A DNA stretch of 64,000 nucleotides from Escherichia coli (GTDB lineage: Bacteria > Pseudomonadota > Gammaproteobacteria > Enterobacterales > Enterobacteriaceae), in NCBI RefSeq assembly GCF_030013595.1, contig NZ_CP122768.1; one strand, 5' to 3'. The notes under the pieces were generated by a model that was not told the DNA's origin, searched no databases, and saw only the letters and a program-made list of their open reading frames with translations. Of this stretch, positions 10,566 through 57,590 are shown piece after piece. Numbering within the stretch: the stretch's first letter is position 1; every line of letters begins with the position of its first letter. Both the position numbers and the translations under genes were made by a program.

Positions 10566-12152
10566 TTAATGCTCGCGGGTCTGGTGGAACTGAACGTCCG
10601 GATAACGTTCCTGCGCCAGACGCAGGTTGACCATGCTGGTAGCGATGTAAGCGAGGTTATCGCCGCCATCAAGCGCCAGTTGGCTTTCGTTCTTACGCTT
10701 GAACTCTTCGAATTTCTTCGCGTCCGCACATTCTACCCAGCGGGCAGTGGCAACGTTGACTGACTCATACACTGCTTCAACGTTGTATTCGCTCTTCAGG
10801 CGCGCTACCACCACATCAAACTGCAGCACACCAACTGCACCAACGATCAGGTCGTTGTTGGAGATCGGACGGAACACCTGCACCGCGCCCTCTTCGGAAA
10901 GCTGTACCAGCCCTTTGAGCAGCTGTTTTTGCTTCAGCGGATCTTTCAGGCGGATACGACGGAACAGTTCCGGTGCGAAGTTCGGAATACCGGTGAACTT
11001 CATCATCTCCCCCTGGGTAAAGGTGTCACCGATCTGAATAGTGCCGTGGTTGTGCAGGCCGAGGATATCGCCCGGATACGCTTCTTCAACGTGCGAACGG
11101 TCGCCCGCCATAAAGGTCAGCGCGTCGGAGATCACCACATCTTTCGCGGTGCGCACCTGGCGCAGCTTCATGCCTTTTTCATATTTACCGGATACCACGC
11201 GCATAAACGCCACGCGGTCGCGGTGTTTCGGGTCCATGTTGGCCTGAATTTTAAATACGAAGCCGGTAAATTTGTCTTCGCTCGCTTCTACGGTACGGGT
11301 ATCAGTCTGACGCGGCATCGGCGCAGGTGCCCACTCCACCAGGCCATCCAACATATGATCGACGCCGAAGTTACCTAGCGCAGTACCGAAGAATACCGGA
11401 GTGATTTCGCCCGCAAGGAATAATTCTTTGTCGAACTCGTTAGACGCGCCTTTCACCAGTTCCAGTTCGTCACGCAGCTGCTGCGCCAGATCTTCACCAA
11501 CCGCAGCATCGAGATCCGGGTTATTCAGCCCTTTAACAATGCGGACTTCCTGAATGGTGTGGCCTTTACCACTCTGATAAAGATAGGTTTCATCTTTATA
11601 AAGGTGGTAAACGCCTTTAAACAGCTTGCCGCAGCCAATCGGCCAGGTGATCGGCGCACAGCCGATTTTCAGCTCGTTCTCAACTTCATCGAGCAGTTCC
11701 ATCGGGTCGCGGATATCACGGTCAAGTTTGTTCATAAAGGTGAGGATCGGCGTGTCACGCAGACGGGTAACTTCCATCAGCTTGCGGGTACGATCTTCAA
11801 CACCTTTTGCGGCGTCGATAACCATCAGGCAGCAGTCCACCGCCGTCAGGGTACGATAGGTATCTTCCGAGAAGTCTTCGTGCCCCGGGGTGTCGAGCAG
11901 GTTAACCAGGCAATCGTGATACGGAAACTGCATCACAGACGTAGTAATGGAGATCCCACGCTGCTTTTCCATCTCCATCCAGTCCGACTTAGCGTGCTGG
12001 TTGGAACCACGGCCTTTTACTGTACCGGCGGTCTGAATGGCCTGTCCGAACAGCAGCACCTTCTCGGTGATGGTAGTCTTACCGGCGTCTGGGTGAGAAA
12101 TAATTGCAAAGGTTCTTCTTTTCGCTACCTCTGCGGCCAAAAGGCTTGTCAT
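10566..12152 (-). CDS. prfC: peptide chain release factor 3 (RF3); 5' end replaced by prophage attR sequence
   Basis: Translation [25 protein letters not shown]... matches PrfC; N-terminus here is [16 protein letters not shown] versus my recollection [17 protein letters not shown] for E. coli K-12, with the K-12-type 5' end found displaced at 57451-57501. Confidence 0.92.
12091..12104. repeat. attR core (direct repeat GGGTGAGAAATAAT)
   Basis: Identical 14-mer at 57437-57450; flanking sequence diverges between host and phage on each side. Confidence 0.65.
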
Positions 12153-12682: not shown

Positions 12683-13387
12683 ATGGGGCAGTTTTTTCCT
12701 CTTGCGTATGCAAGGGCGGCTCTGATAATGAACAGTAATATTTTACTGTTGAGCTTATGCTCACTGATCCTGCCGAGCAGGATGTTCAACGGTTCCAATA
12801 TATCCTGCCCCTTCCGCTTTTTAAAAGGATATTTTATGCATGAAAATATTTGGTTTACATATAAAGCCCGTATTCAAGCGCACCATAGACTAGAATGGCT
12901 TGAAAAACACTCTCAATTTATCCTCGTTTGGTATGCTATATTGAGTGCGGTACTTTCAATTATAACGTTACGATTTCCAAAATTTCTAGGAGATAATACA
13001 GATATCGTTGCGGCAATACTTTCAGTGGCTCTACTGGGTATTTCTCTGATCGTATCTAACCTAGATTATCGTGGTCGAGCAATAGCCATGAGAAGGAATT
13101 ATATTGCACTACAGAGACTCTATTTTGATATTAATAACGGCCAACAGTTAACTCTTGAACAGAAAGAAAAATATTTTAATTTGCTCAATGAGGTTGAGAA
13201 TCATCGTGACATAGATGATAAAGTTTCAAGGGTAACTCAAGTTGGACTTACGACTAGACTCCCCACACAAAAAGAAAAAATAATTGTTAAATTATGGATA
13301 TTACGTCGAATGTTTATTACTGTCGGCCTTTATATCCTCCCATTAATATGTCTTTGGATTGACTATGAATGCAAGCAGAGTTTTTAA
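12683..13387 (+). CDS. multi-helix membrane protein, partner of the reverse transcriptase
   Basis: 234-aa ORF with hydrophobic segments (ILLLSLCSLILPS, FILVWYAILSAVLSIITL, IVAAILSVALLGISLIVSNL, ITVGLYILPLICLWI); overlaps the RT gene; alternative start at 12836 also has an SD. Confidence 0.7.
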   Translation: MGQFFPLAYARAALIMNSNILLLSLCSLILPSRMFNGSNISCPFRFLKGYFMHENIWFTYKARIQAHHRLEWLEKHSQFILVWYAILSAVLSIITLRFPKFLGDNTDIVAAILSVALLGISLIVSNLDYRGRAIAMRRNYIALQRLYFDINNGQQLTLEQKEKYFNLLNEVENHRDIDDKVSRVTQVGLTTRLPTQKEKIIVKLWILRRMFITVGLYILPLICLWIDYECKQSF

Positions 13388-14735
13388 AAAGTCATTCTCG
13401 AAAAAAAACCTTCTAAAAGTATACAATGAAAAAATCAAAGAATCAGGAGCGATTGGCATAGATCGGATTCGTCCATCAAAACTTGATTTAACAATAAAGA
13501 ATGAGATCACTTTTATTTTTGAAAAGGTTAATTGTGGAAATTATAAATTTACAGCATATAAAGAAAAATTAATATCTAAAGGGGCTAACTCTATCCCCAG
13601 ACAGATTTCCATACCAACTGCCAGGGACAGAATTACCCTTAGGGCTCTCTGTGAATGCCTTACAGAAATATATCCTAACTCCAGATTAAAACTACCACAT
13701 ACAGTAATTGACTTATTGAAAAATGCATTAAACAGCGATCTATATGCTGAATATGCAAAAATAGATCTCAAAAGTTTCTATCCTTCAATTGAACATAAAT
13801 TGATATTTAATGCAATAAAAAATAAGATTAGAAAAAAAGAAATTAGGCAGTTAATAACATCATCATTAATCGTGCCTACTGTAAGTGGAAGTACAGGAAG
13901 CAAAGGTGTCCCTAATAATACCAGAGGAGTACCTCAGGGGTTAGCAATATCAAACATTTTAGCTGAAATATCACTATCTGATTTCGACAATGAAATCAAT
14001 AAAATGCATGACATATGGTACATGCGATACGTTGATGACATTCTTATTTTAACGCAAAAAGATCAAGCAACAAAAATTGCATCTCATATCATTGATAAGC
14101 TTCAATCATTAAATTTAAACCCACATCCATTAAATGAAGAGAACTCAAAATCCAAAGTAGGCAGCTTGGATGAAAGTTTCAACTTTTTGGGCTACCACAT
14201 AAAAAATCGAGAATTATTGATAAAACATGAGAGCATTCTTAGATTTGAGTCATCCTTAGCAAAAATTTTTACTGCATATAGACACGCTCTACTACAAGCT
14301 AAAAATAAGCGCGATAAAGAACGAGCTGTTGCATATTGTCAGTGGAAACTAAATCTTAGAATTACGGGGTGTGTGTTTGAAGGTAAACGATTGGGATGGG
14401 TATCGTACTTCTCACAAATAACGTCAACAGCTCAACTTCGAGCTGTTAATCATACGATCAATAATCTTATCCGCCGATTCGGCCTTTCATCAGAAATAAA
14501 ACCAAAGTCTTTGATTAAAACTTTCTATGAACTCCGCAGGGGTAGAGCGGAGACTTTTAAATACATACCTAACTTTGACAATCTACATATATCTCAGAAA
14601 CGAGAAATTGTTTCTATGTGGATAGGGAAAGAGAATGAAAAAAAACTTAGCAATAGTGAAATAGAGAGAAAATTTAAATTTAAAATTGCGAAATCAGTAA
14701 AAGAGCTTGAAGAGGACATTTCAGGGATATCATAG
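13365..14735 (+). CDS. reverse transcriptase (Abi/retron-like, family unassigned)
   Basis: RT motifs in canonical order: KIDLKSFYPSIEH, GVPQGLAISNILAEISL, YMRYVDDILIL, FNFLGYHI, plus a ~170-aa C-terminal extension; ATG at 13365 (TTG at 13359). Confidence 0.88.
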   Translation: MNASRVFKKSFSKKNLLKVYNEKIKESGAIGIDRIRPSKLDLTIKNEITFIFEKVNCGNYKFTAYKEKLISKGANSIPRQISIPTARDRITLRALCECLTEIYPNSRLKLPHTVIDLLKNALNSDLYAEYAKIDLKSFYPSIEHKLIFNAIKNKIRKKEIRQLITSSLIVPTVSGSTGSKGVPNNTRGVPQGLAISNILAEISLSDFDNEINKMHDIWYMRYVDDILILTQKDQATKIASHIIDKLQSLNLNPHPLNEENSKSKVGSLDESFNFLGYHIKNRELLIKHESILRFESSLAKIFTAYRHALLQAKNKRDKERAVAYCQWKLNLRITGCVFEGKRLGWVSYFSQITSTAQLRAVNHTINNLIRRFGLSSEIKPKSLIKTFYELRRGRAETFKYIPNFDNLHISQKREIVSMWIGKENEKKLSNSEIERKFKFKIAKSVKELEEDISGIS

Positions 14736-52973: not shown

Positions 52974-53593
52974 TGACCACATTTACCGATAAAGAACTGA
53001 TTAAAGAAATCAAAGAACGAATCAGCAGCCTAGAGGTTCGAGACGATATTGAGCGCCGTGCTTATGAAATTGCTCTGGCATCGCTAGAAGAGGAGCCGGT
53101 GGCATGGCTGCATTCAGAAAATGGCTTAGGTATTCCGGCAATAACGAGGAGTAAAAACATTGCTGACAGTTGGTTATCAAAGGGCTGGTATGTTCAGCCG
53201 CTATATATAGCCAAGCCAGTGCCGGTGGTGCCAGATGCTCGTCCGTCTTTAAATAATGGCATAGTCGGTTTTGATGAAGGCTGGAACGCCTGCCGCGCCG
53301 CCATGCTTCATGGTGCCGAACCTGTAAGCCAGACTTACAAGTTGAACAAGCTGTCGGGCAACTCTCCAGTAACTCCGGATGGTTGGATAAGCTGTAGTGA
53401 GCGAATGCCGAACGATAAACAGTATGTTTGGTGTTGGGGGAAGCCTTACGGCTGGACTGAGTGCGATACCTTCGAAGGGTATTACGATTGGTCGAGAAAC
53501 AAATGGTGGGCAGTTACTGACGATAGGGAAGAACCGGCATCGAAAGTAACCCACTGGATGCCGCTACCGGAGCCGCCGCAGGAGGTGAAGTAA
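52973..53593 (+). CDS. DUF551 domain protein
   Basis: C-terminal VTHWMPLPEPP motif typical of DUF551 proteins in lambdoid early-left regions. Confidence 0.5.
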   Translation: MTTFTDKELIKEIKERISSLEVRDDIERRAYEIALASLEEEPVAWLHSENGLGIPAITRSKNIADSWLSKGWYVQPLYIAKPVPVVPDARPSLNNGIVGFDEGWNACRAAMLHGAEPVSQTYKLNKLSGNSPVTPDGWISCSERMPNDKQYVWCWGKPYGWTECDTFEGYYDWSRNKWWAVTDDREEPASKVTHWMPLPEPPQEVK

Positions 53594-53787
53594 TGAACAA
53601 CTTAATGACAACTAAACAAGTCGCCGACTTCTGTGGCGTTTCAGTATCGACTGTTCTTCGCTGGAACAGCGTAAACAGGAGAACTGGCCAGAAATACAGG
53701 CCTGACTTTCCAGATCCTGATATTAAATCCTGCCCAAATAAATGGGCATCACGCAAGATATACAGATTTGCTGGAGTTATTGAGTAA
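53593..53787 (+). CDS. AlpA/excisionase-like small HTH protein
   Basis: 64-aa ORF, TTKQVADFCGVSVSTVLRW HTH-like segment, near the integrase end. Confidence 0.45.
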   Translation: MNNLMTTKQVADFCGVSVSTVLRWNSVNRRTGQKYRPDFPDPDIKSCPNKWASRKIYRFAGVIE

Positions 53788-54025
53788 CGTGTATTATCTC
53801 AGATGGGAGCTGACATATCTATGGCACAGACCAAACTAATCTGACAGTCAAGTCTGTGCCAAGAGCAAACGTTGCTAATTTAATGTTAAGTTGTTTCTCT
53901 TGAAGACGATCACGCTATGATACAACCTATAAAATTATCGATATCTGAGAGAACCAGTAAAAAGTTTAAGTCAAGGGTTCTATAAGTGTGTTAATTTATT
54001 GGGAAGCAATAAGCTTCCCTTCTCT

Positions 54026-55726
54026 TTATTTAGGTACGCTATCAACACTTTTGAGAATCGTTGATGTTAAAGGCTGCGACTTTAGTAAGTCTCGAGAAAT
54101 ATCCGGATCTGGTATAGCTATTTTTACTAAACTCTCAAGTTTTTCAAACCACTCCCCATCATTCATTGAGAATAAGTTATGAAGAGCTTCATTTTTATTT
54201 TTGAACCCCCAAGCCTTATAATTATTACCACAGTATTTTGACGCAGCAGTTAGAATATGCCAGCGTAATTTTGAATACTTCCCATCAAACCTCTTATTTG
54301 AGATAAGAGCCTTTAGCCTATACAAGCAATAGCAAGATATATAATAATCATCCTCGAGGGCATCGGAAGAGAAAACCTCATTAAGTAAGTCACCAGTTAA
54401 CCTATTTGGATAACGACTGGAATAATCTGGTCTCATCATAACAATAGCAGCATATGCTCGCGCAACTTCTCTGATATCAAATATGCGTACTGGAGCTATA
54501 CTTTCTGAACTATACTGCCCCTTTCTTCTCTCAAAATAAATTTTATTTCCTTCAATAGCACCTTTAGCATTAAAATAATGTTCTAATTCCCTTAATTTTT
54601 TTAGCGTTGAAATGAACTGTGCATCTTCAACTTTAGATTGTCTATTCGTAGCTCGTACAATGTCATCAAGGATCGCTGGCTCATCGGTTTCAATTAATTT
54701 AATCATTAAACTAACTGATTCATCTACTTGAATGTCTTTTGATATAAGAACATTAGACGTTTGACATCCATTAACAATTTGAAAATCTCGTATAAAAATT
54801 TCTTGCCCTGCAGGCCTCACGCTTGATGCAACTATTGTCACTCCATTATTCATTAAACCAAATCTTGCTTTTTTTCCATCAGTATCTAGTGTTCCTGCAA
54901 TTTCTGAATTTACGTCACCATCAATTCCCAGAAAATCTCTAACATTTTCTTCGAATAATTTTTTTCGAGGGTTTCCATTTTTGTCTTTAAGTATAGAATC
55001 AATAAAACTACGAGCTTTGACTGTAGCTACATAGGCATTATTAATATTAGGGGCCGCTGGGAATGGAGCATAGCCTATTGTAGGAAGTTTAGCTTCTATT
55101 GGACCTTCCGCAGCAAGCCAAAGCTCATGAATCATGTCTTTGTGAGCCATAATGAAGGATGTTTCATGTGAAAACCCGAGTGACTTTAAGCTTTTTTCAC
55201 CCGATGCAAATGCAGCTTTTATTTCTCTGGCCTCTGTATTTTGTGCAGCACTAAAAAAATATGCGTATAAGTCTGGAAGGCCATTTTTGACTCTGCCGAT
55301 ATTAGCAAATATCAAGTTGAACATTTTTTTAAAGTCCGCTAGATATTCACTGTGGGGTTGTTGTGGCGCTGGTGAAAGATAATCTCTTATTGACGCAATG
55401 TAAGAGTCTATTTCCTGTTTGCTCCACTTCTCCGATGACTTAGCTTGCGTGAATACTAATGAAACTTGAAACTCGCGACGTGAGTTTTGGAAAATCTCCT
55501 GAAGTTCTTCAGTTGAAAAAATGGCTCTGTCGTCTAAAAATAAAAATGCTCCATCAATACCAGGGTCCGGGCCTTCATACACAAGATCACTGACCTCAAC
55601 TTTGTCGCCTGAGTATTTTGAAAAAGCACAATAGTTCACAAACGCCTCAAAATTTTTGGTCTCCTCATAGGGCGCAGCGAATGCTTTGCAAAAGGCATCG
55701 AAATAAGATTTCGTGACTAAATGCAT
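54026..55726 (-). CDS. AIPR-family abortive-infection-like protein (tentative)
   Basis: ~566-aa AT-rich ORF between AlpA-like gene and integrase; FQIVNGCQT motif as I recall for AIPR proteins; ATG 55726 preceded by AAAGGAG. Confidence 0.6.
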   Translation of the reverse strand: MHLVTKSYFDAFCKAFAAPYEETKNFEAFVNYCAFSKYSGDKVEVSDLVYEGPDPGIDGAFLFLDDRAIFSTEELQEIFQNSRREFQVSLVFTQAKSSEKWSKQEIDSYIASIRDYLSPAPQQPHSEYLADFKKMFNLIFANIGRVKNGLPDLYAYFFSAAQNTEAREIKAAFASGEKSLKSLGFSHETSFIMAHKDMIHELWLAAEGPIEAKLPTIGYAPFPAAPNINNAYVATVKARSFIDSILKDKNGNPRKKLFEENVRDFLGIDGDVNSEIAGTLDTDGKKARFGLMNNGVTIVASSVRPAGQEIFIRDFQIVNGCQTSNVLISKDIQVDESVSLMIKLIETDEPAILDDIVRATNRQSKVEDAQFISTLKKLRELEHYFNAKGAIEGNKIYFERRKGQYSSESIAPVRIFDIREVARAYAAIVMMRPDYSSRYPNRLTGDLLNEVFSSDALEDDYYISCYCLYRLKALISNKRFDGKYSKLRWHILTAASKYCGNNYKAWGFKNKNEALHNLFSMNDGEWFEKLESLVKIAIPDPDISRDLLKSQPLTSTILKSVDSVPK

Positions 55727-55982
55727 AAAAACTCCTTTCTGAAATAAGATAAGTTTATTAGAAACAACAAGATAAAGATAAAGATAATAGTAATACAAGT
55801 TAAAGACATACTGCATCACATAAGTTGGTCAAGATCAATAAATCAATAAGGATCCCCTATGTTTTATGTATTGTTGATAATTCTATCACCTCTTACTTCT
55901 GGTCTAAGCGTAACCTACTCAAGAATGCCATTGAAAATGTCCACTGTTCGCTCAAAACAGACTGTCAGGGCTACGCAAGCTG

Positions 55983-57206
55983 TCAGGTAGATTCTGGGCC
56001 AGTACAAGTAACGATCGATTCAACTCTCTCCCACCATGCCTGATATGCTTTACGCTGTTCTTCTAGATAATCGCTCTTGTCATAAACCTGCCAAACCCCT
56101 GGCAGTTTATGGCCGAGCATTATTTCTGCAATATGAGGAGCAGTAAGATCAGAAAAGTTTGTTCGTGCTGTTCGCCTCAAATCATGAAGAGACCAATGAG
56201 GGAATTGATGCCCCAAACGCCTCCATGCGTACTGCATTAAATTGTAAGGCAGCGACTGCAATGATGTTCGACCAACGGGTTCCCTGCTTCCTTCCTTAGT
56301 AAAAAGCATATCGGAACCATTGTTCATAGAGATAGCGTTCTTTATAAGCTCCTCCACCGGTTCAATAATGGGCCTCTTTAGCGGTTCGCCTGTTATCTCT
56401 CCAGTCTTATGTCGTTCTGGTGGTACAGTCCATACCTTATTAATGAAATCAAAATCGCCCACCCTGGCAGTAATTAGCTCTGAACTACGGCAGCCAAAAT
56501 GCAGCAATAGCTTAATGAAGGCCCGGTATTTAGGAACCATTCGAGAACCATCGATCGCAGAATAAAGGATTTTAATTTCATCATGTGTCAGAAACCGTTT
56601 CTTCTGACCTTTACGGATATCCATATCTTTACCCGTGATATCCGACAGCGGGCGAGTTTCAATGAGCTTTCTCTTATACGCCCAGACATGGGCCTGCTTT
56701 GCGTTAATTAGCAATCGGTCTGCTATTGCTGGAGTCTTAGTGCTAAGAGGCTCCAGGACTTCTAACCAATCATGCAATGTAGCTGCATCGTGAGGGATAT
56801 TCCCGATTTTAGAGAACAGGTGCAGCTCAAACGAGCGGAGTATCTGTTCAGAACCTTTTTTATTTTTTACACAATATGCTTCATACCAGGCACGGATCAC
56901 AGACTCTACCGTCATGGCTTCAGTAGCTTTTCGTTTTTCAGCCTGCTTGACCAATCGTGGATTACGGTTTGACTCAAGTTCACCACGGAGACGGATAACT
57001 TCTTCTCTGGCCTCTTTTAATCCAGTTGCCGGGTAAGTTCCGATATCAAGACGCTCACCTTTCCCTGCCCATTGATAACGATATTGGAACACTACGCGAC
57101 CTTTCGGTGATACTCTGACAGACAGACCATCACGATCGGATTTAACCAAAACCTTATCACGTTCCTTTCCAACGACTGAACGCAACCACGCATCAGACAA
57201 CGCCAT
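55983..57206 (-). CDS. int: tyrosine integrase (P4-like, N-terminal arm-binding domain)
   Basis: 407-aa ORF; N-terminal LSVRVSPKGRVVFQYRYQWAGKGERLDIGTYP; catalytic-region motifs LHDLRRTARTNF and IMLGHK. Confidence 0.9.
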   Translation of the reverse strand: MALSDAWLRSVVGKERDKVLVKSDRDGLSVRVSPKGRVVFQYRYQWAGKGERLDIGTYPATGLKEAREEVIRLRGELESNRNPRLVKQAEKRKATEAMTVESVIRAWYEAYCVKNKKGSEQILRSFELHLFSKIGNIPHDAATLHDWLEVLEPLSTKTPAIADRLLINAKQAHVWAYKRKLIETRPLSDITGKDMDIRKGQKKRFLTHDEIKILYSAIDGSRMVPKYRAFIKLLLHFGCRSSELITARVGDFDFINKVWTVPPERHKTGEITGEPLKRPIIEPVEELIKNAISMNNGSDMLFTKEGSREPVGRTSLQSLPYNLMQYAWRRLGHQFPHWSLHDLRRTARTNFSDLTAPHIAEIMLGHKLPGVWQVYDKSDYLEEQRKAYQAWWERVESIVTCTGPEST

Positions 57207-57436: not shown

Positions 57437-57450
57437 GGGTGAGAAATAAT
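57437..57450. repeat. attL core (direct repeat GGGTGAGAAATAAT)
   Basis: Identical to 12091-12104. Confidence 0.65.
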
Positions 57451-57501
57451 GGCAAAAGTGCGGCGCTTCGCCACCTCTTGCAAATAAGGAGACAACGTCA
57501 T
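57437..57501 (-). pseudogene. displaced original 5' fragment of prfC
   Basis: Minus strand reads ATG ACG TTG TCT CCT TAT TTG CAA GAG GTG GCG AAG CGC CGC ACT TTT GCC ATT ATT TCT CAC CCC = [22 protein letters not shown], then diverges into phage sequence with a stop. Confidence 0.75.
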
Positions 57502-57590
57502 AATTCTTTCTTCTTGAGTAAGCGGCATCGCGCCGCGCTTGTTGAAAACGAAAAATTGCGGCTATTTTACCCATCAACGGGGGGAGGCAA

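Follow-up and report, generated by a model that had tools for sequence, protein, structure and literature searches.

The locus and its gene

The 64,000-nucleotide stretch of the Escherichia coli contig NZ_CP122768.1 (assembly GCF_030013595.1) analysed here, referred to below as the window, contains a ~45-kb lambdoid prophage in the 5′ end of prfC. Beside the prophage integrase gene, and on the same strand, lies a gene whose 566-residue product is, as judged from its sequence, a member of AbiU/AIPR, a known family of phage-defence proteins encoded by single genes. An original prediction, made from the DNA letters alone, had placed an AT-rich gene of about 566 codons at 54026-55726 with a good Shine-Dalgarno sequence, and both features are confirmed. 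The gene lies on the minus strand and has a G+C content of 36.9% (27.9% at third codon positions); the prophage has 49.5% and the flanking host DNA 51.4%. The sequence AAGGAG precedes the gene's ATG codon at 55732-55737. An open reading frame (ORF) that extends for 1.7 kb in DNA so rich in A and T is no chance event. The longest version of the ORF at this locus, read from an upstream GTG codon (54026-55819, minus strand, 597 residues), was rejected; the homologues are 565-566 residues long and align from the methionine encoded by the ATG at 55726, so that the shorter frame is the correct coding sequence.

The protein is 100% identical to RefSeq entry WP_001419254.1, annotated as "AIPR family protein", and the 4-kb segment around the gene has 100% identity to many complete E. 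coli genomes, for example that of strain AR434. The assignment to the AIPR family, previously proposed from the size of the protein and its FQIVNGCQT motif, is upheld by profile searches, including the Pfam search that had been suggested as a check. The Pfam AIPR model (PF10592) matches residues 258-518 over model positions 1-292 of 308 (E 8.5e-43, 147.6 bits), and it also matches all 100 of the homologues that we aligned. The PADLOC AbiU model (PDLC02357) covers almost the whole protein, with residues 2-562 matched to model positions 3-535 of 537 (E 2.6e-111), and the protein matches PHROG 1841 at E 1.9e-70.

A direct link to the lactococcal proteins is given by BLASTP. The 589-residue AIPR protein of the Lactococcus cremoris plasmid pC42, which itself scores the AbiU model at E 1.2e-177, is collinear with the window protein and shares 24% identity with it over 458 residues (E 9e-28). 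The motifs D..QxK, NVRD, NNGxT, IVNGxQT, ATNxQ and (D/E)RR are common to the two. On the L. cremoris plasmid the AIPR gene is followed by a 341-residue ORF, a layout in keeping with a recent review's account of AbiU as a locus of two genes (PMC13064643). In the window the AIPR gene is the only gene of its 2.1-kb cassette, and the AbiU homologues of Fels-2, RE-2010 and P. aeruginosa are likewise standalone.

The gene is thus already known, being named in RefSeq, and PADLOC or DefenseFinder would call it AbiU; for genome annotation this is an ordinary case of little consequence. The words "abortive infection" are a historical label of the AIPR family, carried over to the E. coli protein by name only.

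Domain structure of the protein

Conservation was assessed from an alignment of the 100 homologues, mostly 23-35% identical to the query, and the same alignment was the basis of an AlphaFold2 (AF2) model (predicted local distance difference test, pLDDT, 91.6; predicted template modelling score, pTM, 0.71). Structure prediction had been proposed as a way to look for an effector domain at the C-terminus. The model suggests otherwise: the C-terminal ~130 residues form a poorly conserved helical bundle, and it is the N-terminal domain that appears nuclease-like. This domain is predicted to have a restriction-endonuclease-like α/β fold, on which a putative E...D...(D/E/Q)xK catalytic motif occupies the expected secondary-structure elements. 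Glu27 (99% conserved) is located in helix 22-38, Asp58 (100%) stands immediately ahead of strand 59-64, and Gln94 (99%) and Lys96 (88%) are both in strand 88-96. The D..QxK variant of the motif, with glutamine in the place of the acidic residue, is that used by Mrr/MspJI-type enzymes. Our structural assignment agrees with a 2026 review in which AbiUi, the lactococcal AbiU protein, was superimposed on FokI, the AF2 model of AbiU resembling that enzyme (PMC13064643). Searches of PDB sequences with the protein and with the 100-sequence profile gave no matches at E ≤ 10, and a Foldseek search of the AF2 model against the PDB found nothing.

The densest set of invariant residues is found in the AIPR domain, and comprises Asn261, Arg263, Asn273, Asn294, Gly295, Thr297, Asn319, Gly320, Gln322, Asn361, Glu399 and Arg400; a further four, Asn293, Cys321, Gln363 and Arg401, are conserved at 98-99%. 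Within the FQIVNGCQT motif, Asn319, Gly320 and Gln322 are present in 100% of the homologues, Cys321 in 99%, and Gln316 and Thr323 in 97% each. AbiU1/AIPR has been placed in the ParB nuclease superfamily (PMC3632139), and our sequence comparisons and model lend this placement weak support. The ParB-like fold signal in the AIPR core is weak, and hhalign comparisons of the AIPR-domain alignment with BrxU, the pEFER ParB protein and a 61-sequence DUF262 alignment gave probabilities below 1%, although the profiles are shallow and this is a weak test. The arginine motif of ParB and DUF262 proteins (GxxR/DGQQR/DGQHR) is missing, the presumed equivalent site at the strand end and helix reading N319-G-C-Q-T323. 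An N-terminal HEPN domain has also been claimed for AIPR proteins (PMC3506569); we rejected an HEPN RNase for this subfamily, which has neither an Rx4-6H motif nor an HEPN fold.

Could the AIPR domain itself be the catalytic unit, as a ParB-superfamily nuclease or NTPase (Makarova et al. 2013), with the N-terminal domain a degenerate module for DNA binding or oligomerisation? The concentration of invariant polar residues in the AIPR domain, its assignment to the ParB nuclease superfamily (PMC3632139) and the glutamine at the expected acidic position of the N-terminal motif would all suit such an arrangement. We nevertheless consider it improbable. The conservation of Glu27, Asp58, Gln94 and Lys96 at 88-100% over deep divergence would not be expected for a dead site, and the fold signal and hhalign results just described also speak against it. 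Truncated proteins that consist of the AIPR part only do exist, as in Brucella anthropi (402 residues), but that gene adjoins an insertion sequence (IS) element and its truncation may be secondary.

Table 1. Features of the prophage and of the AIPR gene, with positions in the window
Feature	Position	Strand	Description and basis
AbiU/AIPR-family coding sequence	54026-55726 (stop codon included)	-	566 residues; ORF, Pfam, PADLOC, PHROG, RefSeq
Shine-Dalgarno sequence AAGGAG	55732-55737	-	5 nt ahead of the AIPR-gene ATG; sequence
Putative PD-(D/E)xK nuclease-like core, N-terminal	55286-55726	-	residues ~1-147
Middle α/β region	54986-55285	-	residues ~148-247
AIPR domain, Pfam PF10592	54173-54955	-	residues 258-518
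FQIVNGCQT motif	54758-54784	-	residues 315-323; strand 316-319, then helix 321-329
Swappable cargo cassette, 2.1 kb	53874-55971		bounded by homology breaks; blastn against L003-L005 and L014-L017
Cassette-specific DNA upstream of the AIPR gene	55727-55971	-	homology with related prophages stops at 55971-55990
GC-rich hairpin	54001-54019		in the gap where the Xis-like and AIPR genes converge; sequence
HTH_17/excisionase-type gene	53593-53787	+	64 residues; HTH_17 E 2.9e-4
P4-type tyrosine integrase gene	55983-57206	-	407 residues; Pfam Arm-DNA-bind_3, Phage_int_M, Phage_integrase
attL core GGGTGAGAAATAAT	12091-12104		14 nt; inside the prfC 5′ end
attR core GGGTGAGAAATAAT	57437-57450		14 nt; adjoins the orphaned native prfC 5′ end
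SLATT membrane protein gene	12683-13387	+	PADLOC RTasSLATT E 2.4e-57; NCBIfam SLATT_5
RT_UG17 reverse transcriptase gene	13359-14735	+	PADLOC RT_UG17 E 8.4e-159

A cargo slot between xis and int

In blastn comparisons, homology to seven related prfC prophages stops at 53844-53873 and restarts at 55971-55990, approximately at the int stop codon. The cassette delimited in this way (Table 1) includes the AIPR gene and 245 nt of cassette-specific DNA upstream of it. Across eight loci the same slot holds six different gene sets, this one counted. In L014 (O121:H19) it contains BovA, split into two ORFs; in L016 (JNE23-011), a PDC-M01A/B ATPase pair; and in L005 (ETEC6334), a DUF4365 protein resembling restriction endonucleases. 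UTI89 and GU2018_CL13 share one uncharacterised gene, and uncharacterised genes also occupy the slot in O145 RM10425 and strain C4; the slot genes of UTI89, O145 RM10425 and C4 could be candidates for defence. Since related prophages hold other cargo at this place (BovA, PDC-M01, DUF4365), the xis/int slot is a real defence hotspot, mapped here with precise boundaries in prfC-integrated E. coli prophages. The earlier suggestion that the gene sits in a position for defence cargo beside int is thus borne out by the sharp borders of the cassette and by its varied occupants.

The location beside int and xis could also mean that the gene has no defence role, and instead serves the prophage life cycle, in integration, excision or DNA processing, or acts as an addiction toxin. 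It adjoins int on the same strand, with no terminator predicted in between. Given the variability of the slot content, however, a life-cycle role is very unlikely, to the point of being nearly negligible. Of 5426 complete E. coli genomes, 699 (~13%) have the integrase family and only 58 the AIPR gene; unrelated cargo takes its place elsewhere, and homologues turn up across phyla in unrelated phages, plasmids and islands. Experiments on the family have also given anti-phage evidence (PMC13064643; bioRxiv 10.1101/2024.06.14.598830).

As to the other neighbours, the integrase named in the original prediction is present, and the "AlpA-like" label of the gene on the far side is only loosely right: this 64-residue helix-turn-helix (HTH) gene matches HTH_17 but not the Pfam Phage_AlpA model, and its scores against excisionase families are weak and under the curated cut-offs. 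The AIPR gene is convergent with the early-left operon, which comprises yfdP/Q/R, a DUF551 gene and the Xis-like gene. The hairpin between them is likely to be the terminator of that operon, because it carries a T-run on the plus strand, and it possibly acts in both directions.

The prophage spans approximately 12105-57436, since the 14-nt core sequence recurs at both ends. It supplies prfC with a diverged surrogate start, and the native 5′ fragment (57437-57505 region), a 69-nt pseudogene in the RefSeq annotation, is orphaned beside yjjG. A reverse transcriptase module had been noted at the far arm, with the implication that defence cargo is carried at both, and this holds. Just within attL, in an island of 33-40% GC, lie the SLATT and RT_UG17 genes, a defence pair of the DRT type, and the prophage is thus armed at both ends, with AbiU at attR and RT_UG17 plus SLATT at attL.

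Further low-GC cargo is seen inside the prophage. A two-gene AT-rich cassette (42275-43435, plus strand) encodes proteins of 237 and 147 residues, the latter, as judged by eye, a hydrophobic multi-pass membrane protein; they match PHROGs 7651 and 8552, of unknown function, and no PADLOC or NCBIfam model. This may be another moron or exclusion cargo. Two low-GC morons encode a PmrG-like phosphatase for lipopolysaccharide (LPS) core heptose(II)-phosphate (38374-38967, plus strand, E 6.6e-61) and an AraC-family regulator resembling YdeO/GadX (41027-41878, minus strand, E 8.9e-42).

Distribution of the family

The AIPR/AbiU family is large, with 3,553 clusters at 50% identity matching at E ≤ 0.001 and 476 at E ≤ 1e-30. 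Proteins 70-76% identical to the window protein are encoded in Pseudomonas, Burkholderia, Aeromonas and alpha-proteobacteria, and in five of the five hosts checked the GC content of the AIPR gene is below that of its surroundings. Mobile elements are the common setting. In Fels-2 and RE-2010 an AbiU-type homologue fills the P2 A/Q hotspot, the P. aeruginosa homologue lies at a prophage end, and the Aeromonas homologue is found beside an integrase fragment, an XhoI restriction-modification (RM) pair and a relaxase gene. The literature names prophages and satellites as frequent carriers of the AIPR/AbiU family (bioRxiv 10.64898/2026.02.27.708500; PMC9958689).

Two other E. coli genomes deserve mention. 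In AR434, a prophage at the same prfC site has the AIPR-int segment in identical form and has degraded to a remnant, in which the tail-fibre genes are truncated and no head or terminase genes appear within the 20 kb displayed; since the AIPR-int segment is still there, the defence cassette outlasts the decay of the phage. Strain 13P484A has two copies of the AIPR gene, one chromosomal and the other in a record of 33.7 kb that bears the label plasmid (NZ_CP019280.1, NZ_CP019281.1). An indel is suggested in the plasmid copy, whose match is one nucleotide short (1700 of 1701 nt) and whose annotation shows two ORFs. The 33.7-kb record could be an excised or circular form of the phage, or an artefact of assembly.

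Proposed mode of action

What does the gene do for the lysogen? We think it probable that it is a single-gene anti-phage system of the AbiU type, carried on a low-GC cassette, and that it works by the gating of a nuclease. The protein would be expressed from the lysogen, driven by the gene's own upstream DNA. Its AIPR module would bind DNA or sense some cue of infection, which might be a nucleotide or something made by the phage, and this event would license the otherwise non-specific N-terminal nuclease, of the FokI/MspJI/Mrr type, with Glu27, Asp58 and Gln94-x-Lys96 at its putative active site. Release of the nuclease would probably involve dimerisation, as in FokI, leading to DNA cleavage early in infection and hence to reduced transcription and replication of the superinfecting phage.

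Published work on relatives is consistent with this scheme. In the review PMC13064643, which cites Dai 2001, Lactococcus AbiUi alone is described as giving an efficiency of plaquing (EOP) of 10^-1 to 10^-2, with phage transcription delayed. AbiU-1 has been counted among single-gene PD-(D/E)XK systems (bioRxiv 10.1101/2024.10.26.620412; PMC13099982). An AbiU from Vibrio has been used in experiments that validated Surt, a phage protein, as an anti-AbiU protein active against it (bioRxiv 10.1101/2024.06.14.598830).

Several observations weigh against the proposal. No Pfam nuclease model matches the N-terminal 257 residues of the query or of any of the 100 homologues, nor does Mrr_cat or another curated nuclease profile match the N-terminus in the same scans, so that the nuclease is called from fold and motif. 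The motif itself departs from the usual (D/E)xK in having glutamine for the acidic residue. A standard scan upstream of the gene gave no consensus sigma-70 promoter, and the extended -10 sequence TGaTAGAAT that a relaxed scan picks out in the cassette-specific DNA (55880-55888) is for that reason a candidate only. The protection reported for the lactococcal system is modest (PMC13064643).

The main rival to this explanation is a direct, non-suicidal restriction resembling that of Type IV systems; catalysis by the AIPR domain is a lesser one. Under the restriction reading, the AIPR domain would recognise modified or foreign DNA, perhaps controlled by NTP in the manner of GmrSD, BrxU and SspE, and the D..QxK nuclease would cut the invader only, making "abortive infection" a misnomer. 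BrxU, SspE and a DndI-type DUF262 protein are among the weak fold matches, AIPR genes have been tied to RM operons by comparative genomics (PMC2292703, PMC3506569, PMC3632139), and the XhoI RM pair lies only 2.3 kb from the Aeromonas homologue. On the other hand, neither Pfam nor hhalign found a modification-reading domain (SRA, DUF262), and the arginine of ParB and DUF262 proteins is missing, the motif being NGCQT and not DGQQR or GERR. Nor is hypermodified DNA known from the lactococcal phages that AbiU targets. For these reasons we regard Type IV-like restriction as unlikely, and prefer the gated nuclease.

Comparison with known systems

The founding member of both Pfam PF10592 and PADLOC PDLC02357 is AbiU/AbiU1 (AbiUi) of L. 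lactis pND001. The window protein is of the same length class as lactococcal AbiU (566 versus 589 residues), and the two share a collinear architecture, their motifs and a home on a mobile element. One gene is sufficient in the lactococcal system (PMC13064643), and the window cassette holds one gene. In contrast, the identity to the lactococcal-type protein examined is only 24%, the window gene is borne by a prophage and not a plasmid, and its cassette is without an AbiU2-like second gene, whereas the lactococcal plasmid has a 341-residue ORF downstream.

The AbiU-type genes of Fels-2 (STM2723.1) and RE-2010 (gp14) align with the AbiU model along the whole or the greater part of their length (E 2.7e-112 and 7.8e-68). 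Both stand alone between gene A/dinI and the portal gene Q, a site known as a hotspot for prophage defence. They differ from the window gene in sequence (at most 30% identity), in phage type (Peduoviridae compared with lambdoid) and in location (the replication/portal region compared with the xis/int junction). MzaE of the MZA system shares the AIPR core, aligned over residues 248-405 at E 6e-9. Membership of that system was rejected, however, as the score of 37.7 bits falls far short of the cut-off of 1050, only this core aligns, the termini differ, and the single-gene cassette contains none of the partners MzaA-D.

For the nuclease-like domain, the comparison is with the cleavage domain of FokI and with the D..QxK endonuclease domains of the MspJI, AspBHI and Mrr type. 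As in these enzymes, the model has a glutamate on a helix, an aspartate where a strand begins and the (D/E/Q)xK element in the next strand. The window domain differs from FokI, MspJI and Mrr in being N-terminal, in its fusion to an AIPR domain with no known sequence or modification reader, and in giving no Mrr_cat match. In the DUF262 proteins GmrSD, BrxU and SspE a ParB-like NTPase is coupled to a nuclease. Their domains stand in the opposite order to those of the window protein, which has NGCQT without the arginine of DGQQR and no hhalign profile similarity to them. Their nuclease is of the His-Me (DUF1524) type, unlike PD-(D/E)xK; the JGI names of the DUF262 matches read "ParB-like and HNH nuclease domain".

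These comparisons raise the possibility, which we put forward as a tentative one, that AbiU/AIPR proteins constitute a separate class of restriction enzyme, one made of a single chain and controlled by a switch. In these proteins, a highly diverged ParB-like module lacking the canonical arginine (NGCQT for DGQQR) would bind a nucleotide or foreign DNA, and thereby gate an N-terminal nuclease of the Mrr/FokI type. The N-terminal placement of the likely effector offers concrete targets for point mutants, Asp58, Gln94 and Lys96 on the one side and Asn319, Gly320, Gln322, Glu399 and Arg400 on the other. If the proposal is true, the protein would amount to a "reversed GmrSD" with another type of nuclease fold, and the E. 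coli prophage copy would provide a tractable genetic model of a very widespread family.

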